A stretch of 64,000 nt of DNA from Leptogorgia sarmentosa (Eukaryota). The stretch is from NCBI GenBank assembly GCA_964658305.1, contig OZ210884.1, positions 3,534,001 through 3,598,000 on the forward strand, in the 5' to 3' direction. This document shows, piece by piece, positions 8,373 through 60,433 of the stretch. Under the pieces are notes generated by a model that saw only the letters and a list, made by a program, of their open reading frames with translations, did not search any database and had not been told where the DNA came from. Positions within the stretch are counted from its first letter, which is position 1, and every line of letters begins with the position of its first letter. The position numbers were made by a program, and so were the translations under genes.

Positions 8373-8455
8373 CGGGGTGTAGTTAAAATGCGGGCGCGGA
8401 CGGCGGGCGCGGGCGGCGGGCGCGGACGGCGGGCGCGGACGGCGGACGCGGACGC
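8373..8455 (+). mobile_element. Orphan terminus of a TIR/foldback-like DNA element with GC-rich subterminal repeats (GGCGGGCGCGGAC)n
   Basis: CGGGGTGTAGTTAAAATG followed by about 5 GC-rich units and then an AT-only tract. No matching opposite end was seen in the window. Confidence 0.45.
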
Positions 8456-8976
8456 TAATTTTTTAAAATTACCCTTTTTTAACTAATAATAATTTTAATA
8501 ATTAATAATTAATATTAATAATGATAATTATTAATAATAATCAATTAATAATTATTTTAATGATTATTTTAATAATTTTAATAATTATTTAACTAATAAT
8601 AATATTTTAATACATAATTGTCATTATGTATTAATTGTTATATTATATTAACTATTATTGTGCACTGTATATTATTATTATGTCGGCGAAAGTTGAGATT
8701 GAAAACAACACAGAGCAAAGCTCCCCTGTATTGCAGATCGAGGCGTTTTGTGGGTTTTTGCGGGTTTTTCCGGAAGTGTTTTGTTTTTTGCGGTGGCGGA
8801 CAATGATTGGTTGAGTAATTTTATCTGTCAGTTGTGACTTTTTTGTACTTTTTGCATGATTTTCGCCACAATTCAAAGTAATTCAAAGCCTTTTGCAAAT
8901 ATTTGAACTTTATTGCGTATTTTTGCAGAAAAATATATATACTATATACAATATTTTTGAAAAATAGAACGTTATT

Positions 8977-10285
8977 TCAACATTGTTCGCTGTTTTTCGT
9001 TGCTTCGAGTATATCTTCTATAGCGTCTATTCGTTGTAGTTTTTCTTTTTCTTTTTTTATTGTCTCTAGAGACTTTTTTCGTTCCTCAGTTATATGGTCG
9101 TACGCTATGAATTGTTTATCGTTTTCGCATACGATGTCGTAAGGGTGTTTTGTTAGTATTGGCTTCGTTTTTTTTGGGTTCTGTCGGTCTTGACCAACCA
9201 GTTTTAACATTTGACTGTACACCACCGGTTCGTCTTGTTTGCTCGCGATTTTTGTCAGGGTTTCGAGCCGTGTTGGCCGCCCGGCTGTTTTTTTGTTCTT
9301 TTCTTCGTTAGTTGTTCTTTTTCTTTTCCGTATATTCTCTTTTAATTTAGAGAGGTCTTTTCTTGCGATGTGTTGTCGGGGTTCGGGTAGTGTTGGAGCT
9401 GTTAGTACTTCGGGTGTTTGTGCTTGGACGGTCGGCGTTACTTTCGTTGGCGGTGTCACGTTGTTGGTTAGGAGGTTGAATTGTGCACCGAAATCATCTA
9501 AGCACCAGTTCTGTGGCAACGGAGATAGATAAGGGAATTGTATCTGTACCTGGGGTTGTTGTTGTTTTGGTTCAGGGCACTGTTGTGTGTCGAAAATGTT
9601 CCCTCCGTCGAACTGTAGTTCTCGACACAATCACGCTTTTTGGTATATAGGTTTTATTTAAAATAACCACAAACAAAAACTAAGATATTAAAATGTAAAA
9701 TTCTCCCAAATCACGATACACGATCAAATTAGCGCCCGGGCTATACAAATCACTCTGTCTCACACTAGGGTTCACTTCGCACTCTCTCATTCACTCTCAC
9801 AATCCAACTGAACGCTTCTCTCTTTTCGTGACTATTTCACTCGCACCCTCACTCTCTAGCTGTCACTCACTCTGTCATGCACTAATTATTGGCTATATGA
9901 AAAAATGTTATAAACTTGGATTATTTGTTCTGTCAGTCCCGACATGTGGGTTTGGTGGTATTTGGATATGTTCATTATGTTGACACGATTCGATTGTTGA
10001 TTGTTCTTTTTTGGGCGACAGTTTTCCTTCGGTAGTGTTGCTTTGTTCTTTGTACAACTTTTGCAGTAGTGGTTCTTCACGAAAGATTGCATTTCTCATT
10101 TGCCATTTTTCGAACGCTTTTGCAAGCGTTAAGTTTGTTGTTTTGTATTCTTTGAAGTTTTCGTACATTTGATAATATTCGTCATTTTTTTGTGGCGAAA
10201 TATCGATTTCTGAAAGCGTTAGGAACTCTAAGTACTCTTGTTGGTCGACTGAGAAATTCATTTTGCGCACTAAAGAATTGTTCAA
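8977..10285 (-). pseudogene. Disrupted intronless gene of unknown (TE/virus-like) origin, in two ORF pieces: 9908-10285 and 8977-9630
   Basis: Lys/Gln/Thr-rich ORFs. A decayed paralog at ~11090-11890 shares motifs from both pieces (SPLPQNWxxDDF..NLLTNN; YCKSC/YYKSC). Confidence 0.5.
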
Positions 10286-10679
10286 AATTGTGGTTTTTGT
10301 AATGGGTGTAATATTATATACTGTTACGTTGACGTTATTGATAAGTAGCTATTTTTGTCATATTGCGGGTTGTTTTAAACCTTTTAAAATATATGTCAAC
10401 ATCGGCTTATTCGCACAGATTTATGAAATTAAAAACTAGACAGCACATGCAGACCATATTTGTTTTAAATTGATTTGTAAAACTTCTGGTTTGTTTTACC
10501 CTATACAGTTAATTAGTAAAACATCGGGTTTATTTAGATCGATAAATACCATATTAAAATTTTAAATATAGCTAAAAACTTGATAGCGTCCCTGCGTTGT
10601 TGCTTTATTAATAAGATTTTATTGGGTGTTGCTGCTTATATATTGATGCATAAAAAGGGTTTGCGGTTATTATTTTCGA

Positions 10680-11084
10680 ATGGATAAACACGATGCATGT
10701 AGAAAAAAAGCAATTAAAATTTTTAAATTGTGTGATGTTGAAATGTGTATTTATGGTACGGATAATAATACAAAAAAGGTGTTCGAAGCTCTTAGTAATT
10801 ATACTACCGGTTATTCTTTGTTTTCTTTATGTGAATTATGGAGTGAAAAAAGTGAATACTATGTTGAACACATTTTTATCGATGTTGATGGAGGTCATCA
10901 ATATTTATTACTTTGCGACAGCAACCCCGCCTCGGGTAGACTTTCCCACGGCAGACGCGGAGTTTTAATATTGCCGTTGCAGTATAGCCCTAATGAAAAA
11001 AGCATTGGGAAAAAATTGACAGTAACGCGATCATGTCATGATCATGACATGATCATGTCATGTGTACTGATTGTGTGTTGTTGA
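10680..11084 (+). CDS. Hypothetical intronless ORF, 134 aa (possibly TE/viral cargo)
   Basis: ATG-initiated with protein-like composition and an AT-rich upstream region. No family recognised. Confidence 0.35.
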   Translation: MDKHDACRKKAIKIFKLCDVEMCIYGTDNNTKKVFEALSNYTTGYSLFSLCELWSEKSEYYVEHIFIDVDGGHQYLLLCDSNPASGRLSHGRRGVLILPLQYSPNEKSIGKKLTVTRSCHDHDMIMSCVLIVCC

Positions 11085-11089
11085 TAGAT

Positions 11090-11895
11090 GTTCTATAGGC
11101 TTTTGCTTAATCTTTTTTTATTGTTCCTAATGATTTTTTCGTTCTTCTGTGATGTGCTCGTACGCCAGGAATCGTTCTTCGCGGAGTGGAATTTGTGCTT
11201 TGTTGGTATTGACTTCGTTTCTTTTGTTCAGCTGGTCCTCACCAGTTGGTTTTGGTGTTTGAATTTATACGTATATTAACGACGCGTCTTGCTTGCCAGC
11301 AACTTTTATAAGGGTTTCCAATTGTATTAGCCTTCCGCTCATTCTCTTCTTCGTTTCTTCTTTTCCTTTTGCGTAAACTTTCTTTTAGTTTCGATAGGTC
11401 TTTTCTAGCAACATGTTGTTGGGGTTGAGCAGGTGTTGGACTTTCTTATGCTTGAGTGATTGGTAATATTTTCGTTAGTGTAAGATTATTGGTTAGCAGG
11501 TTGGAATGTGACCTGAAATCATCTATGTTCCAGTTTTGCGGCAATGGGGATGAATCAGGAAAACCTGCTTTTGTTTGGGGATTGCTGAGGACGATTTTGT
11601 GGTATTTGGATTTGTTGTTGCGTTTCGATTGGTTGTTGGTTTTGGAGAGCTTGGTTTGCTTCGGTCGTGTTGACGTGTTCTTCACACAGCTCTTGTAGTA
11701 GGGATTCTTCATGCATGATTTCGTTTCTCTATTTTGCAAGCGTTAGTTGACTACGACACGTAATTCTGTAGTCTTTAAAATTCTCGTACATTTGGTGTGT
11801 AGTCGTCAGTGGTTTTAGTGACGAGATGACAGTGGAAGTAATCTTGTTGTCGAATGTGAAATTTATTTTGCCTTCTTAAACAACAGTTCAAAATT
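11090..11895 (-). pseudogene. Degenerate paralog of the 8977-10285 gene
   Basis: SSPLPQNWNIDDFRSHSNLLTNNLT versus LSPLPQNWCLDDFGAQFNLLTNNVT; contains stops and frameshifts. Confidence 0.65.
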
Positions 11896-12222
11896 GCGTT
11901 TTTTTTAAAATATTATTTATGCCGTGGTATAATTATCACGTGGTTTTTGTACACAGGTTTATCAAATTATATTAAAAATAGACTGACGAACATTTGTTTT
12001 TTGTCACGTATACTGCCGTTGTTTGGCAAATCCTTCTTCCCTAAATAAAGGCAAATAAAGTACGACAAATTGATAAAATAAAACTAACTTACCTCGTGCT
12101 AGCAAATGCTATTTAAAACAATTGTTAACTTTTCTTCTATTTACGTCAGCAGGGAACTTTTTCTTCTGTTTTCTTCGTCGGTTCGTTTGTTTGAGCTTGG
12201 ATAGCGTTGTCTTTACTTCGGT

Positions 12223-13209
12223 CTACGTCCACTCAATTGGGCCGAGCGTTGTTGACATCTGACCATTCATTGCGGAATGAGCTTTGCGAAGAGGATTTTG
12301 ACCCATCATAATTTCCCGATCAGTAAGCATGTAGTTGGGATTGAGAATGTTGGCTTCGTCATTTTCCTCCAACTTGTAGTTCGGTCGCTTCATTCTCTCA
12401 CGAACCTTACGAGTCGCCGGTCGGCTGGTGCTTTGAACTTTTCTTGCTCTTTTCGCCGACTTTACATCGAATTCCTTCTCGATCTCCTCTCCTTGCAAAA
12501 TGCTGTTGGACATCGTGCTATATGCCTTGTCCTCCGAAATTTGTAAAATGTTTTTTGCTCTTGTAAGTGCTTCAGGCAATGGCACATACCATTTATATTC
12601 ATCTTTTTCTTTTGGAAATTGCCTCATAACGAACTTCATAACAGTTTCTAATTGCTCTTCAGAATAAGGTCCGAGATTACTGTTCAGTTTGAGAACAATC
12701 CTCCTTACCTCTGGATGCAAAGTTGAACCACCCTTTTTCGGAACGTCATGTTTCCAGTTTTCAATCTTCCCACTGCATACAAGACGCAACTCTTCCGTAA
12801 CAGCAAGATTTCCTTCCAGCGTTTTGGTGAACTCACTATTTTGGGACGTATTACTTCCCTGCTGTGTTGGTTGGCTGGCTTCTGAGGTGTGAGACTGATG
12901 AGTAGGCTGATGAGTATCGTTAATCGGGGACGTGGCACGCCCCGTTTTGGTTGGTACATGTATGGTTTCGGGAACGTCGTGTTTTGCTTGTTCCGTTGCG
13001 GGGGAAAGTATATTTTTTATTGGTTTGAGTATATTTTTTTTATCGCTTCCTTTAATTAACATGAGTATATTTTTTTTATCGCTTCTATTAATTAACACCT
13101 CATCTGGCAGATACCTTGTGACGATGAGCTCCGTTTTCTGTGTTTTGCGCAATAAACATGTCAGACGCGTATTGGAATAAATTTGGCAATGTGCGAGTCG
13201 TGTACGCAC
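12223..13209 (-). pseudogene. Transposon-derived ORF fragment ending in the N-terminal part of a Ulp1/SENP-like protease domain, truncated by an LTR-like fragment
   Basis: C-terminal ILNPNYMLTDREIMMGQNPLRKAHSAMNGQMSTTLGPI resembles the xLTDxxIxxAQxLLKxQxPxxxGLQxTxLG start of TE-borne Ulp1 domains. At ~12235 the sequence switches to the repeat motif TTTACTTCGGTCTACGTCCACT. Confidence 0.5.
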
Positions 13210-13614: not shown

Positions 13615-14633
13615 TTAAAAAAAATAATCTATCGTAGGTCCAATTGTAATAAGTAACAGAAACTTCATATCATTCGCGGATGGAACGAGAGTTTGGACAT
13701 AGGTGGGTTCTGCAAATAGGGTGGGTCGTGGATTGGAAGGTCGTGCAGTTGAGGACGGCCGGGCCGGGAGTTCTTGAGGATCGTGGAGTTGTGGAGGTTC
13801 GTGTAGTTGAGGGCGGTCGTGCAATTGAGAAGAAACTTAAAATTGATGACGACCCTTGAAGTTGAGGAGGGTTGTGGAGTTTGGACTGCGGAAAGCTGTG
13901 GAGTTGAGGATTATCGCCCTGTTTGGACTGTGGAGGGCTGTGGAGTTGAGGACGGTCGTGGAGTTGTGGATGATTGCGCTGCTTGGAATGTGAAGGGCTG
14001 TGGAGTTGCGGATGATTGCGCTGCTTGGAATGTGAAGGGCTGTGGAGTTGTGGATGATTGCGCTGCTTGGACTGTGAAGGGCTGTGGAGTTGTGGATGAT
14101 TGCGCTGTTTGGAATGTGGAGGGCTGTGGAGTTGAGGATGATTGTGCAGTTTAGACTGTGGAGGGCTGTGGAGTTGAGGATGATTATGCAGTTTGGACTG
14201 TGGAGGGCTGTGGAATCGCGGACGGTCGTGGGGTTTGGACTGCGGAGGGTTTTGAAACTGAAAGGTGTCTTGAAGCTAAGATGGTGGTGTGTGGTGAAAT
14301 CCTCGAGAACAATCTCGGTGGACAATCGTTTGTAAAGAATGTCCATTTGCAACTCAGCTTGCAATCAAATGAAGGATTTTCACGAACATCCAAAAATCGT
14401 AAGTTCGGAAAAGCCAATTTAATCTTCGTAAAATTTAGCGAAACAAACCTGTTTCGTCTTAGATCGATCGATACCACCCATCCCTTTCGGCGCGATATTG
14501 GTAGGTTCTGTGTGCGTTTTATCCCCAAACCATAACAATCCAAAACATTAAACCGTTGTTTCTCCAAACAATTAAAAACGGTTGTACTTCCAACAAGTAA
14601 AAAGCACAAAACGAGAAAAACCAAGCGCAGCAT
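13615..14633 (-). pseudogene. Signal peptide + short leucine-rich-repeat domain + Ser/Thr/Pro mucin-like stalk, with in-frame stops; copy 1
   Basis: [16 protein letters not shown] signal peptide; LDCYGLGI (LRRNT-like); IDLRRNRF and LRFLDVRENPSFDC (LRR/LRRCT-like); then 42-bp/14-aa repeats QPSTVQTAQSSSTP. The TAA at 14184 is CAA in the 19.4-kb copy. Confidence 0.7.
13870..14250. repeat. 42-bp tandem repeat (~8 units) encoding the S/T/P stalk on the minus strand
   Basis: Unit TGTGAAGGGCTGTGGAGTTGTGGATGATTGCGCTGCTTGGAA and variants. Confidence 0.9.
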
Positions 14634-14709
14634 TATTTTCAGCTGTTTCTTTGTCGATCGTATCGTGATGTTTGTATAACGGTATTCGTGATTGTTTTTC
14701 TTAGGTTCT

Positions 14710-14892
14710 TGTGGTAGTGGTGACTTGTGATGGTGTTGATGGTGGTGATTTATGATGGCGATGATGGTGGTGATGGTGGTGATGATGGGAATGGTGGGGA
14801 TGGTGGTGATGGTGGTGATGGTAGTGGTGACTGGTGATGGTGGTGATGGTGGCGATTGTAATAGCGTTGGGTTTAGACGGTGGTGATGGTTT
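14710..14892. repeat. (GGTGAT)n low-complexity repeat, also at ~15912-16200, 19920-20262, 21045-21295 and 22177-22370
   Basis: GGT/GAT trinucleotide mosaic that produces His-, Thr/Ile- or Pro/Ser-rich spurious ORFs. Confidence 0.9.
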
Positions 14893-15025
14893 CATTCGTC
14901 TGTATCTGAAAATCCTAATGACCCAGGTCCTCTTGTAAAGTATATTACTTCGTCTTAAACAAATCTCTTCTTCAACTGGTGAATATGTCTTCAATCGTAA
15001 CTTTATGATATTTCTGTATTTCTTT

Positions 15026-15545
15026 TGTTAAATATGTTTTTATTTGCACGAGGAGGGAATCGTTACACTTTGTCTATAGTATTTCTACTGTTCGTAAAGA
15101 TCTTCCATCTTCTTCTTCTTGGCGTTGTTTGGTCGGTTTCTTCGTTGAGTTCGTCTGTTTGAGTTTCGGTAGCCTTTTCATTTGATACGCTTTTACTTCG
15201 GTCTACGTCCACTGACTCAAGTTGGGATGGGGAGTTCCTTTTATACTGTCGGTCGAGGGGATCTCTAGACACGTGAACAGCGAGGTGGCACGATACTGAA
15301 TCCACCAATCAGCGTTCATGTGTTGTACTATGAACCGTCGTTCCAGCTCTCCAATTCTGTTTGTTTAGGATGTTGTCGCACTTCTCAAGTCAGTTTTACG
15401 CTCATTCTACCGATACTTAGATAGGTTAAGACTAACCTACTTCATTACTTATTAATAGCAAAATATTTGACGTGCAACCTCTAGGCTTAGCTTTAAGAGT
15501 TAACTTAATTTAGAAGAGAATTTAACGAACTGGGATTTTGATGTC
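15026..15545 (-). mobile_element. LTR-like repeat, partial copy
   Basis: On the minus strand: GATTGG (CCAAT box), CAGTATAAAAGG (TATA), TCAGT about 25 nt later (Inr-like), then AATAAA. Homologous to 18580-19203 and 24590-25140. Confidence 0.6.
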
Positions 15546-15835
15546 CATTTGCAACTCAGCTTGCAATCAAATGAAGGATTTTCACGAACATCCAAAAATC
15601 GTAAGTTCGGAAAAGCCAATTTAATTTTCGTAAAGTTTAGCGAAACAAACCTGTTTCGTCTTAGATCGACCGATACCATCCACCCCTTTCGGCGCGATAT
15701 TGGTAGGTTCTGTGTGCTTTTTATCCCCAAACCATAACAATCCAAAACATTAAACCGTTGTTTCTCCAAACATTTAAAAACTGTTGTTCTTCCAACAAGT
15801 AAATAGCGAGAACAAGAAAAACCAAGCGCAACATT
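15540..15835 (-). pseudogene. LRR ORF copy 2; signal region frameshifted, truncated after CKWT and fused to the LTR-like repeat
   Basis: Near-identical to 14340-14633; junction GGAC|ATCAAAATCCCAG. Confidence 0.75.
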
Positions 15836-16439
15836 TTTTTCAGTTGTTTCTTTGTCGATCGTGTCGTGATGTTTGTATAACGGCATTGGTGATTGTTTTT
15901 CGTGGGTTCTTGTGGTAGTGGTGACTTGTGATGGTGTTGATGATGGTGATGGTGGTGATGGTTGTGATGGCGGTGATGGTGGTGATGGTGGTGACTGGTG
16001 ATGGTGGTGATGGTAGTGGTGACTGGTGATGGTGGTGATGGCGGTGATGGTGGTGATTGCGGTGATGGTGGTGATGGCGGTGATGGTAGTGGTGACTGGT
16101 GATGGTGGTGATGGTAGTGGTGACTGGTGATGGTGGTGGTGTCTGGTCATGGTGGTGATGGTGGCGATTGTAATGGCGTTGGGCTTAGACGGTGGTGATG
16201 GTTTTATTTCTGCACCGTTAAATAAGGTGGGTTCAGGTGGAGAAATTGAAAACAATTAAAAAAACTTTATAATATTTATGTATTTCTTTATCACCTTCTG
16301 AATAGCATTAATTCCAAGGTGATGCTATTTTATTCAGGCTTTTAGCCTTATGAATAATGCATGCTTAGAAGTGTTGTGCTGAAGTATTTTTTACTAACGG
16401 ACAGTGATGACCTAATTTTTTATTTGCAGAACGCGGTTA

Positions 16440-17441
<1,002 letters not shown>

Positions 17442-18259
17442 CATATTCCATTACATTATGAGTGAGCGTTTTCATCTCAGCCATTGCTAAGCTGAATAGT
17501 ACTTCGCTTGCGCAAGTTCGTGGGCGCTAAAGCATTCGCTTAATCATGCAAGGTTAACTAAAGTCTTACTTTCTAAAATAAAGTCTTTATGTCATTGAAT
17601 ATATGTATCGCGTATAGTATCTGAGTACATCATTATATAAGGTGTCACGCAACAATGTACAATTCAACTCGAACAGCCAGATCGTCGAGGTCGCAAAGGG
17701 AATGCTCGTTACTTAGTTCGCGTGAAATACGCTAGAGCACCCAATTTCCAAACATTCTTTTATTTCTATTTCTTCTAAATTGAAATATTTAACGTTCACA
17801 CAGACACTTTACAAACACGTACACAGTCAAACATATGGACCAAGACTTACTAACTAGGTAACATTATTTACATTTGATGCACGTGCAGTTGTCAAACACG
17901 GATTGTTTATAATTGTTTATTGTTGACCACATATGGTCATTTTTAATCATCCCTGATATCAATATGAATCGAACCCCGTATGTTAAACGTACTCGTATAA
18001 CATGTGTATATATTTCATATAACAAACAGAATGAAGATAGCTACAATAATTAATCATACCGAAAACGTAGCAGTCTAAGTAAAAAAGCATGCATAAGTAT
18101 AGCTGACGGAATGAAATTGAATAGAGATCAGGTTCTTCCTTTTTGCATTCTTGTTGAAGAATAAGAACAAAGTCGATATTTTTTTAATTTGATCTCAAAT
18201 CTGACATTTATCATTTACTCATTTGATTTATATATCAAATGGAAATAATTGCAAAGACC

Positions 18260-18579
18260 GAATGGTAGCTAATACTTTAAATTGGTAAAGCCCATGATAG
18301 GTTGTGAAGGACGTGTATTCTTTGGGGAATGCCCCATTTCGACTTGCCAGTAGCCAGAAATCAAATCTAATGTAGTGAAAAATTGGGTTTGTCCCAGTAA
18401 TTCAAGGGATTCCTGAATATCCGGAATTGGGTTGGAGTCTTTTTTAGCAACGGCGTTCAATTCGCGATAATCAACGCAAAACCTATTACACCCATCCTTT
18501 TTCTTAACCAAGACAACGGGACTAGCCGAAGCACTCACTGATGGTTCGACGACATCATCGTGAAGCATTGATGTAATAT
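18260..18579 (-). mobile_element. Ty3/gypsy reverse transcriptase N-terminal fragment
   Basis: ITSMLHDDVVEPSVSASASPVVLVKKKDGCNRFCVDYRELNAVAKKDSNPIPDIQESLELLGQTQFFTTLDLISGYWQV shows canonical gypsy RT motifs; it frameshifts afterwards and ends before YxDD. Confidence 0.95.
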
Positions 18580-19203
18580 TGTTACATATGTTTTTATTTG
18601 CACGAGGAGGGAATCGTTACAACTGTGCCTATAGTATTCCTACTGTTCGTGAAGATCTTCCGTCTTCTTCTTCTTCTTAGCGTTGTTGTTTATTGTCGGT
18701 TTCTTCGTCGAGTTTGTCCTGTTTGAGGTTCGGTAGCCTTTTCATTCAATGCGTTCTTTACTTCGGTCTACGTCCACTCTCTCAGGTTGGAATGGGGAGT
18801 TCCTTTTATACTAACGGTCGAGGGGATCTTTGGACACTTGAACAGCCAGGTGGCACGATACTGAATCCACCAATCAGCGTTCATGTGTTGTACTGCGAAC
18901 CCTCGTTCCAGCTCTCCAATTCTGTTTTTTTAGGGTGTTGTCGCACTTCTCAAGTCAATTTTACGCTCATTCTACCGATACTTAGATAGGTTAAGACTAA
19001 CCTACTTTATTACTTACTAATAGCAAAATATTTGAAGTGCAAAATCTAGGCTTAGCTTTATGAGTTAACTTAACTTAGAAGAGAATTTAACGAACTGAGA
19101 TTTTGATGACGTATTATTATAATTACTCAACCGCGCGAATTATCTTGAGGCGTGATTGATAGCAAAACCCAAACCATACGCACGTGTAAGTACAAAGGTT
19201 ACA
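18580..19203 (-). mobile_element. LTR-like repeat, most complete copy (~620 bp)
   Basis: Minus strand begins TGTAACC and ends TGTAACA (TG...CA), with CCAAT box, TATAAAAGG and AATAAA in the expected order. A further partial 3' copy abuts it at ~19204-19350. Confidence 0.65.
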
Positions 19204-19350
19204 TGGTTGTATTTATAGTAATGTTAAATATGTCTTTATTTGCACGAGGAGGGAATCGTTACAATTGTGCCTATAGTATTTCTACTGTTCGTAAAGATCT
19301 TCCGTCGTCTTCTTAGCGTTGTTTAGTCGGTTTCTTCGTTGAGTTCGTCT

Positions 19351-19841
19351 CAGCAGTTTGGAATGTGGAGGGCTGTGGAGTTGAGGATGATTGTGCAGTT
19401 TGGACTGTGGAGGGCTGTGGAATCGCGGACGGTCGTGGGGTTTGGACTGCGGAGGGTTTTGAAACTGAAAGGTGTCTTGAAGCTAAGATGGTGGTGTGTG
19501 GTGAAGTCCTCGAGAACAATCTCGGTGGACAATCGTTTGTAACGAATGTCCATTTGCAACTCAGCTTGCAATCAAATGAAGGATTTTCACGAACATCCAA
19601 AAATCGTAAGTTCGGAAAAGCCAATTTAATCTTCGTAAAATTTAGCGAAACAAACCTGTTTCGTCTCAGATCGACCGATACCACCCATCCCTTTCGGCGC
19701 GATATCGGTAGATTCTGTGTGCTTTTTTATCACCAAACCATAACAATCCAAAACATTAAACCGTTTTTTCTCCAAACATTTAAAAACGGTTGTACTTCCA
19801 ACAAGTAAAAAGTACAAAACGAGAAAAACCAAGCGCAACAT
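19351..19841 (-). pseudogene. LRR-mucin ORF copy 3 (frameshift at ~19725; stalk truncated and fused to an LTR piece)
   Basis: ORFs 19626-19841 and 19313-19684 together reproduce copy 1. Confidence 0.8.
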
Positions 19842-20264
19842 TATTTTCAGTTGTTTCTTTGTCGATCGTGTCGTGATGTTTGTATAACGGCATTGGTGAT
19901 TGTTTTTCGTGGGTTCTTGTGGTAATGGTGACTTGTAATGGTGGTGATGGGGTTGATGGTGGTGATGGTGGTGATAGTTGTGTTGGTGGTGATGGTGGTG
20001 ACTGATGATGGTGGTGATGGTGGTGATGGTAGTGGTGACTGGTGATGGTGGTGATGGTTGTGATGGTGGTGATCGCGGTGATGGTGGTTATGGTGGTGAT
20101 AGTGGTGATAGTGGTGATGGTGGTGATGACTGGTGATGGTGGTGGTGATGGTAGTGGTGATTGGTGATGGTGGTGATGGTAGTGGTAGTGGTGACTGGTG
20201 ATGGCGGTGATGGTAGTGATGGTGGTGATGGTGGAGATGGTGGTGATGGTGGTGATGGCGGTCA

Positions 20265-20395
20265 TGTGTAATGAGCTCTCGTTGTGCTGGGGCTGTGCTG
20301 TATGGCCTCTGGCGCATAGGTGGAATGCCATTAGTTGTTATTTCATGCTGCACAATGGATGTTCGCCCTAAATCCTGCGTTATGCTCACCAACCC
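20265..20395 (-). mobile_element. Ty3/gypsy pol fragment immediately upstream of RT (duplicated at ~22372-22500)
   Basis: [38 protein letters not shown] is the typical gypsy pre-RT linker. Confidence 0.88.
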
Positions 20396-20635
20396 ACTAC
20401 CTTATATTAGTATATACAAAAGAATAATTAGGCAAGCTACAAGCGAAACTTCATTATATATGGAGTGTAAGGTAATAAAACATATAAAATGTACGATATC
20501 ATTAGAAGAGTCTTTAACTGACTTACGAGAAGGAGCTGCGACATTTGGATTAGCCACGCACGCAAAAAGTAAAGTATAAAAACCGATGTATACGTTAGAC
20601 CCGCAGGCATATATAGTCTCGCACCACAATGATTG

Positions 20636-21472: not shown

Positions 21473-22054
<582 letters not shown>

Positions 22055-26721: not shown

Positions 26722-26924
26722 GAGGTCTGGGTCTAGTTGATTTTTGGAGGGGAAACGGACGAGGTAAATGTGTATTAAAGATGCTTTAAATAGTGTTTTT
26801 GCATTTCAGGCCTCACAACGAACTTTAGGAAATTAGAAAAACATTAGGAACACTTCCTAGATGTCATATTCGACATATCGTTTATTTTCGCCCCTCCGAA
26901 ACAAGCCACTAGACCCAGTCCTCT
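26722..26924. mobile_element. Short MITE
   Basis: Terminal inverted repeats GAGGTCTGGGTCTAGT / ACTAGACCCAGTCCTC. Confidence 0.6.
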
Positions 26925-29900: not shown

Positions 29901-30359
29901 ATAGAAATTATGGGGGGGACGATGACCACCCATGTGACTACCAATCTTAATCCCTTCTCCGAACATTTTGTTTCAGGATGCTTTAGATTTGGCATAATTC
30001 AGAAAATGCAACATTGTCTCTCTGAATGGCAATAGTGGAATGGCAAGATTGGAATATAGTGCTCAGTTATTTTATTTTCCTCCAATATGTTGGATTAAAA
30101 ACTTAATTTGGAGGCGCAAGGTAAAATTTGGGGACCCTTGATCCTCTATCTTGAGTATCTTCTACCTTGTAGTAAAATGTTAGGGTGGTCTGTTGCTCCC
30201 CCCCCCCCCCCCCACTTACACTTCAATTTCTTAACCATAGCATGGTGTCTCCAAATGTGAGCGTTCAAACAATTTTAACCGTTCATTCTGACTAACGTTC
30301 TCAATTTTCTGCTGTTTTCAATATATCCTATTTTTTTAATTCCAGCGTCATGTAACATA

Positions 30360-31140
30360 CTTCCGTCCAAACCAGAAAATTCGGCAGCATTCCAGGAAAC
30401 GATGCAAATCGCAACACGAAGTTGTGCGAGGTACCAGATTCATTTTGCTTCTCTTTTGATAGTTCACACGGCAATGTTCTGAACATCGTGTCCGTTTATC
30501 CAATTTTCCTCTTGTCGCTTTCTCTTGCATCTCGCTGTATTGTTTTGTGTTGTGTTGTAAAGTTAGTGTTGTTTTATTTCACATTAGTCATTTTATCATA
30601 CTATGACATTGCTGGTTTCAACTTGCATAATGCATTCGCGCATTTTTTAATTGAAATTTCGGTTTACTTTTACCTGTTTCTTTATTTCATTATTTTGTAA
30701 TGTTTTAAAATGCCCATATTCAAAAAAGATATAAAAAATACCGCGCGGCTAGAGCCTCGTGGAATCTCTTTATACTTTGGTCTATCGATATATGAAAGTA
30801 TTTTCTGCAACTCCAGTTGAATTTGAAATTTTTCCGATATTCGAAAGTTTTCAGTTTATTTATTTACCCTGAAAAACAGCAGTCAAAATAAGCTTTTATA
30901 GAATGATGTGATATTATTCATAATGTATTTGTAATGAGCTAGTTTTGAGGCGCAGGAAAACTTATCTTAAATTTAATTAGCTATAGCTGGCTGATATGCG
31001 GACCTCACAGTATTACAGTATTTTACAGACGTAAAAGAGTGCGTAACTGATCATGTATTATCGTATGTGAGAACAAAGTTAAGTAATAATTTTTATAATA
31101 ATCACATTGAGGATGTAGTAAATATTTAAAAGACAGCAAG
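30360..31140 (+). repeat. Left arm A' of cassette 2
   Basis: TTGTGCGAGGTACCAGATT..TTTTGCTTCTCTTTTGATAGTTCACACGGCAATG..ATCGTGTCCG matches 7109-7190 closely; inner landmarks are colinear. Confidence 0.78.
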
Positions 31141-31672
31141 GTAATAAGCAACTCGAGTTGGGAATGCCATGCATGACCGAAACAACGTGTTTTTTTTCAC
31201 TTGTCAATCAAATCATAAAATGACAGCTCTCGAAATATATAGCTCCTTTCTTCGGGCGCGCTATGAAAATAACAGTTTTACCACTTTATATTTTATACCA
31301 ATTCAGTACTCGCTTTGACGCATGTTTTTGATTGATGGTAAATTTACTATTGGCGTGGCAGAAAACCCGGATAAGCGGATAGTAGGGAATGGATACGAGA
31401 TTTATAAAAAAATCTATTGTGATACTAATTACCAAATCCCATTATCGTTGATTTAAAAATCACGGTCTCTTCTCGCGTCTCCTTCACGCTTTTTTGGAAA
31501 ACTAATATGCAGGTTAAAAACATACAGTAGCTAACACTATTTTTAAAATGGTTTATCACCTAGAAAGTACAATTACAAGAACAACTTCCAAAAATAGTTC
31601 TCCTGCAATGTGCTTATTCAATTTGGTGGTCTTCTCCCCCAACATAATTGGAAAAGCTGCCAAAATACACCG

Positions 31673-31765
31673 AATAACCTAGGCTATACGTTTTCCAATG
31701 TCATTAATAAATATATACATCTAAATAACCTATAGGCTATACGTTTTCCAATGTCATTAATAAAT
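31673..31765. repeat. ~50-bp tandem repeat (2 units); 3 more units at 33568-33697
   Basis: Unit AATAACCTAGGCTATACGTTTTCCAATGTCATTAATAAATATATACATCTA. Confidence 0.85.
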
Positions 31766-32059
31766 AAGGGAATCGGGGTTGGCGCATGTTAAAAGATTGC
31801 AAAAATTGCTATATATGTAGATTGTTTTAAAACGTTATCATACCAAATTGTTTCTTGTTGCCATACAGGCCAACGCGCAATGCCATTGTGGTTGAATACT
31901 TGAGAGTTTTAAGAGTGTCTGCTAATAGATGCTTGCTGTAGCAAAAGGGCCGAATGTGACATGCGCACGTGTGTATAAATTGCGTGTTACGGGGCGTCTT
32001 GGGCATGTTTGTTGTCGTGTGGTTATAATTGGGGTCTCAGGGGGTGAAGGTTGTGTAGC

Positions 32060-32940
32060 TAGGATAATTGCCTGTTGGTTTAATCGTAGTTCATTCATGA
32101 TGTTCACTGCTGCTTTGTTACGAACATTAAAATGACCAACATCATCATCCAAAATTGAGCACCTCGGCTGCAACCAAAAATTGTTTTCGGCAACCGGTTC
32201 CAAATCATCCCGTTCAATGACTCATTTTGGTTCTGGGTTTTCCCATCCAAGCACTTTGCCAAAATATCATCATTACTAAGCCTGTCATAAATCGGCCTAA
32301 TTAACTTAATAATATCATCAGGACGACCAGGTCCTGGTTCATATAGATTCATATTATTGGCCACATCCTGCTTGCATAGTGAAAGAAGTGGCAAGTGCTG
32401 AGGATTTCATGGCAGATAAATCTCCAGAATTACTTCTTATGGCAATTCCATAATAGTTCTGAGGTTTGTCTATCAAAGAGTCAGTGAGTTTCCCCTTCCC
32501 AATCCAATCCCCTTCCCTCCAATCTTTTTTCCGCTTCCTCAATGCTGTGTCTGAACTCCATGAACTCCTTCGTATAGCTGTTCACTACCTCATTGTAGGT
32601 CTTGCTGTCACCATCGCCAAAGTACTCGGTGTATTGCAGCTTGCGACATTCCTCGCTTCTTCCAAAGATTCTCTTGATCCCAGCAGTTTCCATTGATGGT
32701 GCAGAACCAACGTAGTTCACTTTATACTTAATTGCCAGTGTGCTTTTCCAAAGGGTCTGCTTTCTTTGCATCATCAGACTCCCTTTAATTGCTTTGCACC
32801 CATGACAAACTTTTGTTAGGACCTCGATGTCCAAGCATTTGCCAGTTTCAATAGATAAGGTTGTGGCACAGCCATTTAGCGAGGAGTGACCACGTCTTTG
32901 CCATGTTCCATCGCACGAGACACCACACTTTACAATCTGG
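32060..32940 (-). mobile_element. Degenerate Kolobok-type (Pfam 'Mutator-like') DDE transposase fragment
   Basis: SCDGTWQRRGHSSLNG, TGKCLDIEVLTKVC, GSAPSME, YFGDGDSK, GKGKLTD..YYGIAIRSN and CLDGKTQNQNESLNGMIW, spread over several frames. Confidence 0.9.
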
Positions 32941-33289
32941 CTCCAATGACGCATTGACAACAGCAATATCCTTGCTGAAGCGCTTTATCCTGTCAAAATA
33001 TTTGTGTTAATAATAATAATAATAATCTTCAACAACATGCAATTCAATAGTTGCATCTTGCATGAATGTCAATAGCACAATAAAACTGATTGATATGATC
33101 GTATAGAATATGGATGAGACGTATTGTTTTGTTCACGGTGAAAAACAAATGACACATGTTTAAACAAGGAACAGTTTATTAACGTACATATATACAAAAG
33201 TATTCTAAAGTCATTGATGAAACTGCTTTCCAAATAGTAATTTGCTGGATGGCTTGCTTGCTTGTTTGCTTGCTTTCGACGGGTCTCAG

Positions 33290-33430
33290 GAGATTGACAT
33301 CGTAGTACGGTTCTTCGGGTAACCATTCAAAGTATTTGCACGAATTTTCCTTATCCAGAGGACAGCAGAAAAACTTTCGATCTTTGTTTAAACCGTCTTT
33401 TTTCACTTTACACACTTTGCAAGTAAGTCC
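33290..33430 (-). pseudogene. GRF-type zinc finger fragment
   Basis: CKVKKDGLNKDRKFFCCPLDKENSCKYFEWL fits the zf-GRF pattern (N.GR.F..C......C.FF.W). Confidence 0.8.
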
Positions 33431-33713
33431 ATGACGCCATTCGGGTTTCTTTTCGAATTCCACGTCACCCCACTGCATGCCAATGAGTTTGAGAACGATA
33501 AGAAGAGATGACAACGCATTGTTGTGAAAGATTATATATTGGGCATTCGGCGTTGACCATTATATCTAATAACCTAGGCTATACGTTTTGCAATGTCATT
33601 GATAAATATATACATCTATAAATAACCTAGGCTATACGTTTCCAATGTCATTAATAAATATATACATCTAAATAACCTAGGCTATACGTTTTCCAAATAT
33701 TAATTTTGTATTC

Positions 33714-34060
33714 GGTTCAATGACTCATTTTGGTTCTGGGTTTTCCCATCCAAGCACTTTGTCAAAAGATCATCATTACTAAGTCTGTAATAAATGGGCC
33801 TAATTAACTTAATAATATCATCAGGACGACCAGGTCCTGGTTCATATAGATTCGTATTATTTGCCACATCTTGCTTGTATCGACACCAGCTCTCAGGAGC
33901 ATCTGGACAATAGGTGTGCGAGTTCCGTCTCTTGGAAGAAACACATCCCCTTGTTATCTTTTTTCATCTTCCTCGGTGCTCTGCCGACTCGTTTTTGAAT
34001 ATGACCAACACATTCTTTTTTCTCCACATGAACTCCTACGTATTAGCTGTTCTGTACCTC
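33714..34060 (-). mobile_element. Additional Kolobok-type transposase fragments
   Basis: 33714-33878 duplicates 32210-32374. Also encodes HTYCPDAPESWCRY and KKECVGHIQKRVG, motifs missing from the 32-kb copy. The ECVGH segment recurs at ~36600-36722. Confidence 0.85.
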
Positions 34061-35120
34061 GCCAAAATATGTATGTTACATACCTTCAAAGACAATTCTT
34101 CCTCTTCAAGAACTCAATAACAAATGTGATTAGCCTTTTAGACTTTAGTGTGAAGCGTCGGTAAATAGCATATAGCAATAGCAATAGACGTTAATTTCTA
34201 TTTTCTGAATACTCAAAATATTAAATTTCGCTGAAGACGCTTCGTGGAGCATGATTTCCAATTCCCTCAAAAGAGTTTATACTAAATTTTCTGGACCTTG
34301 CAGTACCAAAAACAAACAGTACCTGATGAACAAAATATTGAAATTGAAGAACATGTTACTGAAGTACTATTTACTATAAAGAACAAATAATGTCAAATAA
34401 AAAATAATTGAAGGTTTGAATAATAATCATAAAGGAAGTGCTTTACGCCAAATCGTTTCTTTATAAGTAGTAGTTTTTAATTACAGATGCCCTCGGGGTC
34501 ATTTATACACTAAGTAAATACCATTAGTCAACCTTGAATGAAGGAACATGATATTTGTTAAAGCATGAGTCATGATGGTGCAGTTTAAAAGATGCTTGTA
34601 CTCCGCACTGGATACACTGAAATTGAAGTCGTTGCCACTAAAAAAGAGCAAGGATTCCAAGAAAATTTTTCATCAAATAATCTACATGTTTTGTTTACTG
34701 GTTTTTTTTCTTATAACGCACATTGGGGGCTGTGGAAACTAAACTTCCCAGCGTTACAAAATCGTTGTTTCACATTTCGTTCAAATTTAAAAAAAAAAAG
34801 TTGGTCCTACATGTGTAGCCGAACGCTATTTAGTCCATATATACTACAAATTATGTGATGTTTGTAAACCTTGGTCACATTCCTTATGACTTGTCCAAAG
34901 AGATGATCACCAGGATTAGTTAGGCAGCCAATGGGGACCCCCATTATCGGTCTCCAAGTACTTTGAGTGGGTGCCCGATGTGCCTTATCTAGTTGTTAGT
35001 TTTGTGAAACCCGTTTCAAGTATATCATAAACAATTTTCCAATTAGTTGGAACATATGAACATTTTATTTGAACAGTTTTAATTTAAACACTTTTATAAG
35101 TATTATTTTAAAAATTCTTA

Positions 35121-36349
35121 TTAAAAATCATTAAAGTCTAAATGGTCTAAAAAATAAAAATTGTTCCAGTCCAATGAGGCCATGAGTTCATCCACGTCAG
35201 GTACCGGGGATGGGACTTCTTCAAGGGGGTTTACTGGGGGTTCTTGGAGGACTTCATCGAGCGCTGCTTCTTGGGCTTGATTCAGATCGGCGTCCTCTTC
35301 GACATATTGATCCTCGAACCTTTGTAATAAACGAGGGTCTTCTAAATGGTCTAAAAAATAGAAACCGTTCCAGTCCAAGGAGGCCATGAGTTTACCCACA
35401 TCGGGTACCGGGGATGGGACTTCTTCACGGGGGTTTATTGAGGGTTCTTGGAGGACTTCATCGAGCGCTGCTTCTTGGGCTTGATTCAGATCGGCGTCCT
35501 CTTCGACATATTGATCCTCGAACCTTTGTAATAAATGAGGGTCTTCTAAATGGTCTAAAAAATACAAATTGTTCCAGTCCAAGGAGTCCAAGGAGGCCAT
35601 GAGTTCACCCACGTCGGGTACCGGGGATGGGACTTCTTCACGGGGGTTTTTTGAGGGTTCTTGGAGGACTTCATCGAGCGCTGCTTCTTGGGCTTGATTC
35701 AGATCGGCGTCTTCTTCGACATATTGATCCTCGAACCTTTGTAATAAATGAGGGTCTTCTAAATGGTCTAAAAAATACAAATTGTTCCAGTCCAAGGAGG
35801 CCATGAGTTCACCCACGTCGGGTACCGGGGATGGGACTTCTTCACGGGGGTTTACTGGGGGTTCTTGGAGGACTTCATCGAGCGCTGCTTCTTGGGCTTG
35901 ATTCAGACGGCGTCCTCTTCGACATATTGATCCTCGAACCTTTGTAATAAATGAGGGTCTTCTAAATGGTCTAAAAAATAGAAACCGTTCCAGTCCAAGG
36001 AGGCCATGAGTTCACCCACGTCGGGTACCGGGGATGGGACTTCTTCACGGGGGTTTATTGAGGGTTCTTGGAGGACTTCATCGAGCGCTGCTTCTTGGGC
36101 TTGATTCAGATCGGCGTCCTCTTCGACATATTGATCCTCGAACCTTTGTAATAAATGAGGGTCTTCTAAATGGTCTAAAAAATACAAATTGTTCCAGTCC
36201 AAGGAGGCCATGAGTTCACCCACGTCGGGTACCGGGGATGGGACTTCTTCACGGGGGTTTACTGGGGGTTCTTGGAGGACTTCATCGAGCGCTGCTTCTT
36301 GAGCTTGATCCAGATCGTCGTCCTCTTCGACATATTGGTCATTGAACAT
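35121..36349 (-). pseudogene. Acidic protein built of six 204-bp (68-aa) tandem repeats; single 1-bp frameshift at ~35908
   Basis: Repeat spacings of 204, 213, 204, 203 and 204 nt. ATG at 36349, stop at 35121. Unit QYVEEDADLNQAQEAALDEVLQEP..REEVPSPVPDVGELMASLDWN..YFLDHLEDPHLLQRFED. Confidence 0.8.
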
Positions 36350-36949
36350 TTTATTTGAACATTTTATTTGAACATTTTATTTTAAACATTTTATTTTAAC
36401 ATATAAAAAGAAACTGTTAGTTATAAAGATTGCTATCAAAATTGGTTAAAATAGTCTTCAGGTGAAAAATTAAAATCATTGAGAAAATTGAAATCGTCCC
36501 CTCCAAGGACGCCATAAGATCCGCTAAGCACAAGCGACATTTACGAATCATTTAATCGAATTAATATAATTTTTCAAAATCTATGCTACCTAATTTGTAA
36601 CCCTAACCCTTTCCTTCCAATCCCCTTGTTATCTTTTTTTTCAGCTTCCTCAGTGCTGTGCCGACTCGCTTTTGAACATGACCAACACATTCTTTTTTCT
36701 CCACATGAACTCCTTCGTAGCTATTAAGAAAATATTCTTAAAATAAGATAAATTTTTCTTAAATAGATTTTTTTATTAAGGAATATTTCTTGTTATTCTT
36801 TCCAAGAAAAACAAGTTTTTTTTTCTTAAAATACACTACCGTAGTAAGAAAATGATTTTCAAGAAATTCTTCTTGAAACAAGAAATTTTAATAAATTCTA
36901 AGACGCATGTATTACAATAATGTTCATATATTCTACGGCTTCTGTGTTA

Positions 36950-37657
36950 AAGTTTTTGTACGACGGAAGCTGCGAAATACTGCAGGACGTTCATTCCGAG
37001 TTCATAGTATTTTGGATAATCAAAATCTAGCAAATAAAACGTTGCCATGAATGCCACAACAGTTTCTGGCAACAGGCTTATCTCTAGCTTCAACAAAATG
37101 CGTTTTCCTACTATCACATAACAGGAATTTCTGTCCAACATCACCGTCGGAACATTCCCGGCTTGCTTGCCACACAACATGTCAGGATCCTCATGGTCCT
37201 TTACGAAACAAATAAATTGAATGAATACACGCAGTTTGAAATTATATCATCAAACATACTTCATACTTGTGCATTACTGTACCTTAACTTTATGTATAAT
37301 TTCCTGATTGGTCTGTTCCTTTGCGTTGTGTTTCCCGGAGAATAAAGTTGGCAGGAACTTAAGAACATGGAGGATCTTGGCATTTGCAAACAGAGATTGA
37401 AGTATAATAAATCATGCACTTACAATTACTAACACATAACTGTTATACTCCCTAAAATGAAAGCACAGTGGTTTCGATTCATGAAGGAACTTACTGAGTT
37501 GTGGGCTTTTTGGAGGATTTATTCCTTTTGAGTTAATGGGCTGGCATAGTATTATTAGTATATAAGAAATTCAATTTCTTCAGTGAGCCTGGAAACACAT
37601 CCTTTTAGAAAATCTTCTTCTTGTTCAATCATTAAGACTCACCTAGCCTCAATAACC
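36950..37657 (-). pseudogene. Spliced fragment of a DNA-transposon accessory ORF (EnSpm/CACTA-associated type), decayed
   Basis: Exon ...KILHVLKFLPTLFSGK...IHKVK|GT intron AG|DHEDPDML..., ending AFMATFYLLDFDYPKYY...LQ, which resembles the F..YY.F.L.YP motif of such ORFs. Confidence 0.5.
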
Positions 37658-38184
37658 TGTTAAATAGAAGAGATATACATGTGTGTGTATAATTATTAAG
37701 ACAGCATCATCCAGGTCTTTAATGTACAACTAACTAACTGTAATATGAAATTATGGTCAAAATTGAAATGGTCTTGAAGGACACGTTGCCCAAGGAAACC
37801 TTCTACGACCTTGACCTTACTAACAACTCAATGGAATATAAAGGAATAAATAATACAATTACAAAATATGGTAGTAACATTGCAACATATGAGAGCATGA
37901 TTATTAAAAATAATGTGTATGTTCCACATTGACACTGTCATAAATTACCATTGAGACATAGGACATTGATTAAAAGTATAATTCATTAAAAGTATAATTC
38001 ATTAAAAGTATAATTCATTAACAGTATAATTCATTAACATAAAATTTAGTAGTGGATGGCATTTTTAAAGGGAAAACTCAACCTTTTTTCAGTGCAGAAA
38101 TCGTTAATATTAATTGATTATTATACAAATAATGAATGTTTATGAGTGCAATGGTAAGAATATTTTCATGGAACATTCCATCTT

Positions 38185-38465
38185 TCACCGAATGCGTGAC
38201 TCCGTAACTTTCTTCAAATTTCTGCCATTACACGCCCGTTTTCGTTTTGTTTTGGTGCCTTGACCGGCACATGCGAAAAAGTCGCACTTCTCATTTTTGT
38301 CCGTCTCCTGGCATCGCAAAAACGGCCGGCCCGGGTTTTCTGTAGAATGCGAAACCCAAAAGCTGCAAACTTCATCGCAATCACATAATGGGAAGTTGTT
38401 CGGTTTCAACTTGCTGTGTACCTTCGATTGAAAGACCTCAACCAGCTCGGTATACTTCTCCTCGG
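38185..38465 (-). pseudogene. GRF-type zinc finger fragment
   Basis: PLCDCDEVC...SHSTENPGRPFLRCQETDKNEKCDFF. Confidence 0.85.
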
Positions 38466-39224
38466 CCACAAATAACGTACAAGTTATACATTTTCATTTC
38501 ATGTCGGCACGGCGTGTATGATTTTTTTTTTCGAACTCGTATTGTATTGTATTGTATTGCATTGTGTATTGTGAATACAATATAGTTACACATTACATAA
38601 TATAAAAGTTAATTAAGATACTAATTATATATACATACTATACTAATACTAATACTAATTATATATAACAAGAATACCTGTTTTCCATAAGTGCCGTGCT
38701 AATATATATTAATATAAAAATCTAAAATTATTAACTAATTCTGCCCTACCATGGAAACCAGAGTTGAACTCTTGCAAACATCACACTCAAAAGGTATTTC
38801 TCGTGTGTGGTTTTTTTTCATCCATTGTGTCTACCTACAATGCAGTAGACAGTGGGTCACACTGAAAAAGTAGATTTAATATAAGTAAAAATATATATAG
38901 CATTTGCTTCTCGTAGAAGATGTACGGTTAGGCAACTTATGCATTAGCGACTTATGGATAAGACGCCACCTTAATAAGACGCGATCTAGTTTATAATTTT
39001 GCTCCATATTTACACAACCAGCATTTTGCAATTGACTTTACGAAAATCGAAATAACTTTTGAAGACAGGGTTGGTTTCTTCATTGCCCTAAAATAGTCCT
39101 CTTGTGAGGTGGAAGATTAAAGTACCTTACCACACATTCAAAAGCCCCCAGCTTCTTACATTACTCCTTCTAAACTCAATGTACCTTTTTCTCAAATGTC
39201 TTAATGTTTTTCTTCTACTCTTCA

Positions 39225-39397
39225 CTGTGTGTGGAGGAATCACCGTCACCGAGCATGTTCGTGTATTTAAGGCCCCGTGAAATGTAGGATCTTTCAAATA
39301 TCCGCAAGGCGCCAGCTGCTTCCATGCTGTTCGCGCTTCCTGTATGGTTAATTTTGCACTGGTGGTTAGCTTTCCACTCTAATGTTTCTAACTCCAC
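39225..39397 (-). mobile_element. Kolobok-type transposase fragment from a second family
   Basis: CKINHTGSANSMEAAGALRIFERS...LKYTNMLGDGDSST. Confidence 0.85.
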
Positions 39398-40589
39398 AAG
39401 TTTCGGTATTGGTAAATAATAGTATCATTTTTTTCAAAATTCATAACATGGACAATAAGTAATATTGTGAATGCTTGCGTAGCTGAAACGCTGAATACCG
39501 GCAAATTTTGTGGCGCGAATTTGATCGCGATGGTCTCAACGGTAATCGTTCGAATGTACTTTAAATATTTGTGAAATATAATTTATATTATTATTTGTAC
39601 GCGGAAAATAAACCTAAAATTAAAGCTTTAAAGTTTTACGCTGAGCGTCTGATGTTGAGATGTAATTTTGTCATGCTAATAATATATATCAGTTTTCAAT
39701 ACCTTTTGAATCTTCATTACCATCCGCTGGCAAGTTTTTCTTTTTTTTCACCTAACTCGCTATCTTTCCGGCGAACATTTGGAAATTATGGTTGAAAGTA
39801 TCTTCCATAGATGAAGGCATGCCTTCCACCACAACACGTTCAAATTTAATGAGGACTTGGTAATCGGCTGCTATCTGTATTTTTTCAATTGCTTGTACAC
39901 CACCATGTACCACAATCAGGGCGTATGCGGCCTTTGCGTTGTGAAGGTTTAAGGTGATGTTCGCATGCGCTATCTTCATTTTCCTAAGTAACAAAAAATA
40001 TAAGTTGTATAGTACATACCATTGTGGGCTAGTCATATTTAGACTTCAATTTCATCATGACTGCAAAATGATGTGACACGTATATAATTATATGATAAAA
40101 AATGATTTAAAAGTATATGATGTGACGCGTATATAAGTGTGAAAAAGTACAGGAAGAATTTCACAAAATCTGGCTGGTTGGTTTTATTTGCCTTTTGTGA
40201 CAGCAGGATGGGGCAACTTCTGTCAGCTCATCCGAAAATAAACAATAGTATATGCATATTTAGTGAGGCACCACAAAATACATACTGTAACAGCTCATTA
40301 TATTACACCAATTACTTCCATCTTCGAAGATTTTCTCCAAAATATATTTCGCTGAATTTGAAAGCAATTCAGATAACCAATTCGGGAAAAGAGTTGAAAT
40401 TTTGCCTGGATCATAATGTCTTTCACAATACGGTGGCGAAAAATGTGTCAATTTTTGCTTTTCTTTCGATAATCGTGTCGGTATTTGAACCCATTTTTTC
40501 CCGATCGAAGGTTTCGCATGCATGTGTATGCCGTAAATCCTAAAAATATAATTTCCTTGTTTTGGAGTAAAGGATACATATAGACGCAC

Positions 40590-60397: not shown

Positions 60398-60433
<36 letters not shown>

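Follow-up and report, generated by a model that had tools for sequence, protein, structure and literature searches.

Why should coding fragments of many unrelated mobile elements lie on one and the same DNA strand? The question is raised by the span at 8373-40040 of a 64,000-nucleotide window from Leptogorgia sarmentosa (GenBank assembly GCA_964658305.1, contig OZ210884.1, positions 3,534,001 to 3,598,000 of the forward strand; all coordinates below are those of the window). A preliminary description of this DNA reported that nearly all of the fragments are on the minus strand and proposed a uni-strand cluster for PIWI-interacting RNAs (piRNAs). The fragments come from unrelated sources and are truncated; they abut one another directly, some have been duplicated on the spot, their orientation is polarised, and diverged relatives of them exist elsewhere in the genome. 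Judged from its sequence, the span is a patchwork of mobile-element coding cores and a candidate for a one-strand piRNA-cluster-like trap that would be read on the plus strand, a reading to which we assign a probability of roughly 45%.

Orientation of the mobile-element pieces

When open reading frames (ORFs) of at least 40 aa in 8300-40100 were compared with Pfam (147 of the 172 minus-strand and 148 of the 188 plus-strand ORFs, those omitted being mostly alternative frames across tandem or low-complexity repeats), domains of the mobile-element type were found in 10 of the 147 minus-strand ORFs, namely three C2H2 zinc-finger arrays, one RVT_1, four PF20700, and two GRF domains. None of the 148 plus-strand ORFs carried such a domain; a single DUF at E=6.5e-4 was taken as noise. 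The same polarity is seen in a strand-symmetric scan of 27 non-repetitive stretches, in which all frames were read through with stops as X: 7 of 81 minus-strand frames had a mobile-element domain versus 0 of 81 plus-strand frames. By length, the assigned sequence comes to 16,126 bp on the minus strand versus 427 bp on the plus strand. It forms two blocks, at 8.98-25.16 kb (73% assigned) and 31.9-40.05 kb (59% assigned), and only the left one has a strong base skew (AT skew -0.16, GC skew +0.15).

These homologies bear out the minus-strand placement of the gypsy-type reverse transcriptase (RT) at 18272-18570, the zinc-finger arrays at 16460-17441 and 21493-22054, and the two GRF fingers at 33182-33559 and 38188-38493. 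The copies resembling long terminal repeats (LTRs) are placed there as well, by a minus-strand TATA box in three of the four checked (the fourth is a 3' piece) and a minus-strand AATAAA in all four. The four PF20700 pieces fall into two families, as described earlier, with ~46% protein identity between them; the name Kolobok, which we presume for them, comes from motifs only, and Pfam calls PF20700 Mutator-like. The Ulp1-like piece, also on the minus strand, proves by its protein relatives to be part of a truncated GTF2I-Ulp1-PHD gene. For the EnSpm-like, leucine-rich repeat (LRR), and 68-aa repeat labels no convincing Pfam match was found, and the orientation of these pieces comes from ORF shape and motif resemblance. 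In particular, the EnSpm/CACTA label, the EnSpm-ORF2-like label of the spliced-gene piece, and the label of the linker upstream of the RT (pre-RT) are our assumptions, unconfirmed by homology.

Two pieces lie on the plus strand, and both are real: the ORF at 10680 has 97%-identical relatives, and the remnant at ~34955 has a 22-aa alignment to GRF gene 1. The ORF is head-to-head with the minus-strand orphan gene ending at 10348, and the remnant is tail-to-tail (convergent, ~35030/35124) with the 68-aa repeat ORF. Because each thus adjoins a minus-strand gene, both are likely to be passengers, and they suggest one or more donors with genes on both strands. The ORF is cut at a palindromic scar, with a perfect 12-bp hairpin at ~11029-11055 and an 11-bp tandem repeat (11029-11062).

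The pieces are less independent than had been supposed. All 136 self-matches within the span are direct repeats (the right flank has 14 direct and 6 inverted), and since the LRR-like cores are 94.5-97.5% identical, the pre-RT linkers 97.8%, and the zinc-finger arrays 96%, the stretch at 13.7-22.8 kb represents about four source pieces shuffled in place. With duplicates collapsed in a hand-built table of units, the near-total polarity first claimed becomes smaller: 9 of 11 homology-anchored units are minus (binomial p=0.065), or 8 of 9 when a mixed fragment is dropped (p=0.039). Adding eight motif- or ORF-based units gives 17 of 19 (p=0.0007). The harshest collapse, which treats every orphan, GRF, LRR-like, and repeat gene as one donor, leaves 6 of 6 (p=0.031); counting the LTR and both EnSpm-like pieces as well makes this 9 of 9 (p=0.004). 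All of these counts lean minus, at p=0.004-0.07 on the main collapses, values that are uncorrected for the post hoc choice of the span boundaries in a scan of very many windows.

Such modest values leave some room for chance. A few insertions, several of them from one multi-gene donor, may have faced the same way, been multiplied in place, and then been picked out post hoc. The reduction of 13.7-22.8 kb to about four sources fits this account, as does the homology-only p of 0.065, and a single donor could have supplied the orphan, GRF, LRR-like, and 68-aa genes. We nevertheless regard it as unlikely, given that the units remain 6 of 6 or 9 of 9 minus even with possibly linked genes counted once, and that a coding-piece density of 73% and 59% in the blocks, versus none in the flanks, still wants explaining.

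Pieces, junctions and sources

The features of the window are collected in Table 1; for the tblastx self-comparison the summed E-values were unusable, and pairwise alignments alone were taken.

Table 1. Features of the window, from left to right within each part, with strand and basis of assignment (aa, amino acids)
Feature	Position	Strand	Basis
Orphan-family split copy	N-terminal part 9911-10348; C-terminal part 8980-9630	-	both halves map to P0037
First 117 of 187 codons of orphan gene (plus-strand exception)	10680-11030	+	P0008, 97% over aa 1-117
Second, older orphan-family paralog	11085-11908	-	65-67% DNA identity to 9040-9537 and 9951-10302
Mid-part of GTF2I-Ulp1-PHD gene	12235-12933	-	60-66% to P0004/P0013/P0027, whose domains define the gene
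Signal-peptide / LRR-like / Ser-Thr-Pro-rich ORF module, copy 1 of 4	13673-14891	-	LRR label by eye
LRR-like module, other copies	near 15503-16255, 19350-20270, 20638-21349	-	cores 94.5-97.5% identical
LTR-like copy	15025-15543	-	TATA box 15237, AATAAA 15039, minus strand
C2H2 zinc-finger array, 84-bp unit x11.5, stop codons inside	16460-17567	-	Pfam zf-C2H2
Gypsy-type RT start	18272-18573	-	RVT_1, E=2.4e-5
Longest LTR-like copy (18574-19203) and 3' piece of another (19216-19349)	18574-19349	-	self-comparison
Upstream linker of gypsy RT (pre-RT)	~20271-20401; duplicate near 22375-22509	-	97.8% between duplicates
C2H2 array duplicate	21461-22174	-	96% identity to 16460 copy
Acidic ORF without assigned family	22823-23209	-	no Pfam match; diverged copies elsewhere in genome, contigs in all four runs
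Frameshifted EnSpm/CACTA-transposase-like piece	23400-23790	-	translation; diverged contigs ~93%; no Pfam match
Diverged LTR-like copy	24581-25160	-	76-79% to other copies
Stretch without orientable coding piece; non-coding repeats	25161-31924		no Pfam match, either strand
Transposase family A, two internally deleted copies	31925-32984, 33715-34042	-	PF20700 at 32484-32984 (E=1e-23) and 33896-34042 (E=3e-4)
GRF gene 1	33182-33481	-	GRF, E=5e-9
3' end of GRF-type gene (plus-strand exception)	34955-35030	+	22-aa alignment to GRF gene 1
204-bp tandem repeat x5.9, open as 68-aa repeat	35124-36376	-	no convincing homolog
Third piece of transposase family A	36606-36737	-	PF20700, E=1.8e-6; 92% to 33945-34042
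Piece of spliced gene, 84-nt GT-AG intron at 37199-37282	36950-37660	-	no Pfam match
GRF gene 2, distant relative of GRF gene 1	38188-38500	-	GRF, E=4e-5
Transposase family B piece	39130-39424	-	PF20700 at 39218-39424, E=1e-12
ORF at right edge, without family	39755-40045	-	ORF list; no Pfam match
Signal-peptide exons of WxxW genes, one per gene	45393, 54310, 62461	+	
WxxW exons	~45.9/47.6, 54.9/55.7, 63.8 kb	+	Pfam

A search with 23001-33000 gave 17 public sequencing runs, none recorded as RNA or small RNA, and the joins between pieces can be compared with contigs from 4 of them (X1, X4, X7, and X12). These contigs are unstranded, come from runs of unrecorded kind, and cover 22750-35120 only. 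Junctions are bridged by contigs of X4 (22923-23638, one difference), X7 (22957-23454 and 23426-24010), and X1 (23615-24415 and 32321-33174). Since contigs from two studies besides the best-matching run bridge them, the mosaic at 22.9-24.0 kb is real and common to samples. In X1, 505 of 848 contigs are at 85-95% identity, which indicates related, diverged copies elsewhere in the genome; such contigs lie over several pieces in 22750-35120, and the protein clusters are multi-member, so that potential targets exist elsewhere. The LTR-like copy at 24581-25160 has up to 19 X1 contigs with differing letters, and X4 has near-identical pieces across 22.9-26.8 kb. The depth profiles of X4, X12, and X7 correlate with that of X1 at Spearman values of 0.73, 0.74, and 0.95. 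The more uneven depth of X4 and X12 looks like expression, but the run kind is unrecorded and contig depth is no measure of level, and it is not used here as evidence; likewise, no inference is drawn from bins without cover in X4 and X12 (28.1-28.9 and 31.0-31.8 kb).

Two local arrangements were seen in these contigs. At 25879-26850, run X12 has two near-identical contigs with a depth far above that of their neighbours. The edge of the left contig, at 25879, lies 16 nt beyond an AATAAA on the minus strand (25895-25900) and beside a plus-strand AATAAA (25875-25880); this edge could be the end of a minus-strand RNA or a two-way terminator. Contigs show neither strand nor ends. In the right block, two copies of transposase family A surround GRF gene 1 and share a 166-bp direct repeat (94.6% identical). 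One X4 contig joins 33715-34006 directly to 31882-32211 with no mismatch, so a form exists, possibly an allele, that is without the 1.5 kb at 32212-33714 (the transposase piece and GRF gene 1 between the 166-bp repeats).

Could the pieces simply be the genes of one element, naturally co-oriented? The two transposase families, the gypsy RT, the Ulp1-PHD gene, the C2H2 array, and the intron-bearing gene piece are unrelated, and the homology-anchored pieces therefore do not belong to one autonomous element. On this point the cluster proposal survives. A single autonomous or composite element (Helitron, Polinton, CACTA, or KolobokP) was rejected for want of matching termini and of a coherent replication gene set. 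Short-word searches of both span ends found no terminal repeat longer than 17 bp, the Pfam scans of both strands found no RepHel, polymerase, integrase, or capsid domain in the span, and no minus-strand Helitron 3' end (hairpin plus CTRR) was detected there by the scripted criteria. A KolobokP with long direct repeats (PMC9587614) was also rejected: the LTR-like copies bear a TATA box and AATAAA, and they do not flank the transposase pieces.

A different form of co-orientation by construction draws support from the joins themselves. Here the RT of an LTR retrotransposon, switching templates among co-packaged RNAs, would have made the left block as a chimera, or the block would have been captured into one composite non-autonomous element; either way its pieces would all be sense to one another without any selection. 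LTR-like pieces are directly joined to the LRR-like module and to the Ulp1 piece, which ends just before the protease core and is fused to a short LTR-like piece at ~12150-12235. The junction at 12235 lies ~30 nt past the position of the LTR TATA box, near the likely transcription start, and short shared words occur at LRR-LTR joins; all of the internal repeats are, moreover, direct. The right block speaks otherwise. It has no LTR piece, keeps its GT-AG intron, and mixes two transposase families with two GRF genes, and yet it has the same orientation. The missing Helitron end, RepHel, and terminal repeats, together with the two plus-strand pieces, also count against such an origin, which we hold to be improbable. 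The passage cited on maize Helitrons (PMC3288121) does not document a general same-orientation rule for them.

The orphan gene family has 44 relatives at E<=0.001 (representatives at 50% clustering) and encodes proteins of 250-370 aa whose predicted layout has two domains, helical at the N-terminus and beta-hairpin/helix at the C-terminus, with a long disordered linker between them (predicted local distance difference test, 70.6; predicted template modelling score, 0.38). This fold has no match at E<=0.001 in viral or Protein Data Bank structure libraries, and the family has no Pfam match. Among the 10 protein clusters looked up, its octocoral relative is the sole named relative of any gene. 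Two members elsewhere are likely tandem paralogs, and a metagenome scan gave two loci (1.0 and 1.6 kb) with no neighbouring genes. A viral origin of these genes is our assumption from a resemblance; scans of viral contigs gave no relative of GRF gene 1, the Ulp1 ORF, P0078, P0092, P0008, or the LRR-like ORF, and the LRR-like module has no Pfam match either.

A proposed plus-strand precursor and its setting

If the span is a one-strand trap, a long plus-strand RNA would carry the pieces antisense and would be processed into guides with which PIWI proteins act on those families. Antisense pieces would be kept by selection, whereas sense LTRs would be removed by it, since their poly(A) signals would end the precursor; later deletions and in-place duplications would leave the coding cores more concentrated. 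Both plus-strand pieces would be passengers, neighbours carried in from the same donor. The minus-strand AATAAA of the four LTR-like copies would stop a long minus-strand RNA, which is thus unlikely, but not a plus-strand one.

A plus-strand transcript need not have anything to do with piRNAs. If the span belonged to a long non-coding RNA, or to the intron of a gene not seen here, sense insertions could be purged from it because they end or mis-splice the RNA, and an antisense bias of intronic elements is established in the passages cited (PMC3517506, PMC1794541). The nearest host genes are indeed on the plus strand: three short, spliced, secreted WxxW (Mucin2_WxxW) genes lie in tandem at 45393-63870 with a period of ~8-9 kb. 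A separate signal-peptide exon opens each gene (the first at 45393), which puts the span upstream of all three and outside their coding intron, and the idea that it is an intron of a WxxW gene was rejected. No plus-strand host domain or exon was detected with Pfam in 1-8500 or 40301-45300, so that read-through from a gene inside the window is unsupported. For read-through of the mosquito type, from a same-strand gene directly upstream, a scan covering Pfam-bearing genes within the window likewise gave no plus-strand gene in 1-8500. Intronic purging, furthermore, does not predict a pile-up of coding cores. We consider an ordinary transcript quite unlikely.

In the flanks, ORFs of at least 48 aa were scanned (115 plus and 131 minus); the matches were the WxxW exons (3 of 115 plus) and a weak DUF (2 of 131 minus), and no mobile-element domain was found with Pfam among the 246. 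The window has 38% GC, its CpG is not depleted, and no Rfam family matched. A 137-aa open frame at 1421-1831 (minus strand) looks protein-like and is without a Pfam match. Several palindromic elements resembling miniature inverted-repeat transposable elements are present in the right flank, at 62790-63504, 48103-48365, and 49432-49562. At the left edge of the span, 8373-8620, a 13-bp GC-rich repeat occurs five times, followed by a TAA-rich tract; this edge resembles the end of a non-autonomous DNA element, the other end of which is absent from the window.

Several findings weigh against a piRNA-cluster-like trap. Only about half of the span (~52%) is assigned, and the 6,764-bp stretch between the blocks is 0% assigned, with nothing orientable. 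A plus-strand precursor would be expected, though not strictly required, to be poor in poly(A) signals, but plus-strand AATAAA is not depleted, with 41 seen versus 31.4 expected in the span and, for the left block, 12 versus 11.1. The window showed neither a promoter nor a bounding arm, nor any plus-strand gene upstream. The arms that the preliminary description had placed at the ends of the cluster were found neither among inverted pairs (401 in all, none of the 25 longest of which bounds the span) nor in the short-word searches of the ends; the only repeats shared between flank and interior, 7106-7190 with 30419-30505 and 25994-26060 with 41489-41554, are both direct. Independence of the pieces is limited, the span boundaries are post hoc, and the orientation statistics are modest once duplicates are collapsed. 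Finally, template switching would account just as well for the short stretches of sequence shared at some LTR junctions. What stands of the cluster proposal is the layout, with several unrelated families polarised on one strand.

In a variant of the trap, to which we give distinctly less credence, its content would be mainly the cores of DNA transposons together with accessory genes (the orphan family, GRF, and LRR/mucin-like genes) from a large mobile element or DNA virus not yet described. Fragments would have been trimmed to their coding cores and amplified in place, and the plus-strand pieces would have come along as neighbours from a donor whose genes lay on both strands.

Comparison with known piRNA clusters

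One-stranded clusters are common in Cnidaria, according to the passages cited: 402 of 457 piRNA clusters in Nematostella (PMC5731801) and 61-68% of those in Anemonia (PMC5793845). In molluscs (Lymnaea/Crassostrea), clusters are described as enriched for Gypsy and Kolobok (PMC6128900). The span resembles these in having tens of kb of truncated elements, with gypsy and Kolobok-type pieces among them. It differs in how it is known, since the cnidarian and mollusc clusters were defined by small-RNA reads and this locus comes from sequence alone; the main-text passages on them do not report the orientation of the elements inside.

In Drosophila, strand bias has been used for de novo prediction of clusters like flamenco (flam), as described in passages of van Lopik et al. 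2023 (PMC10643416); there Gypsy alone drives the bias, and flam-like loci are detected in 100-kb windows rich in LTR elements. The span shares with these loci a strand-polarised element content. However, the gypsy RT piece and the LTR-like copies are minor here, and DNA-transposon and orphan genes dominate; antisense Gypsy LTR elements, the main content of a strictly flam-like locus, make up a small share of the 16 kb assigned, and the comparison with flamenco does not hold in that strict sense. A further comparison is with the Aedes cluster in which same-strand hybrids of transposable elements and endogenous viral elements yield one antisense transcript, as reported in the passage cited (PMC7161354); as there, short coding fragments of mixed origin lie on one coding strand and form inter-element hybrids. 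In contrast to that cluster, and to the read-through clusters of Aedes (Qu et al., bioRxiv 10.1101/2022.08.22.504762), the span showed no fragment of an RNA virus, and no upstream read-through host gene was found within the window.

As it stands, the locus is one more candidate of a known kind, for which the interpretation given here is plausible and unproven. Should small RNAs bear it out, piRNA loci would be predictable from sequence alone, by the polarity of DNA-transposon and orphan-gene fragments and not just of Gypsy, in invertebrates for which there are no small-RNA data. The list of fragments would then name the families of elements that the host controls, one unannotated multi-copy gene family among them; and should the variant with an undescribed donor be true, the locus would be a readable record of the elements that this lineage had to silence.

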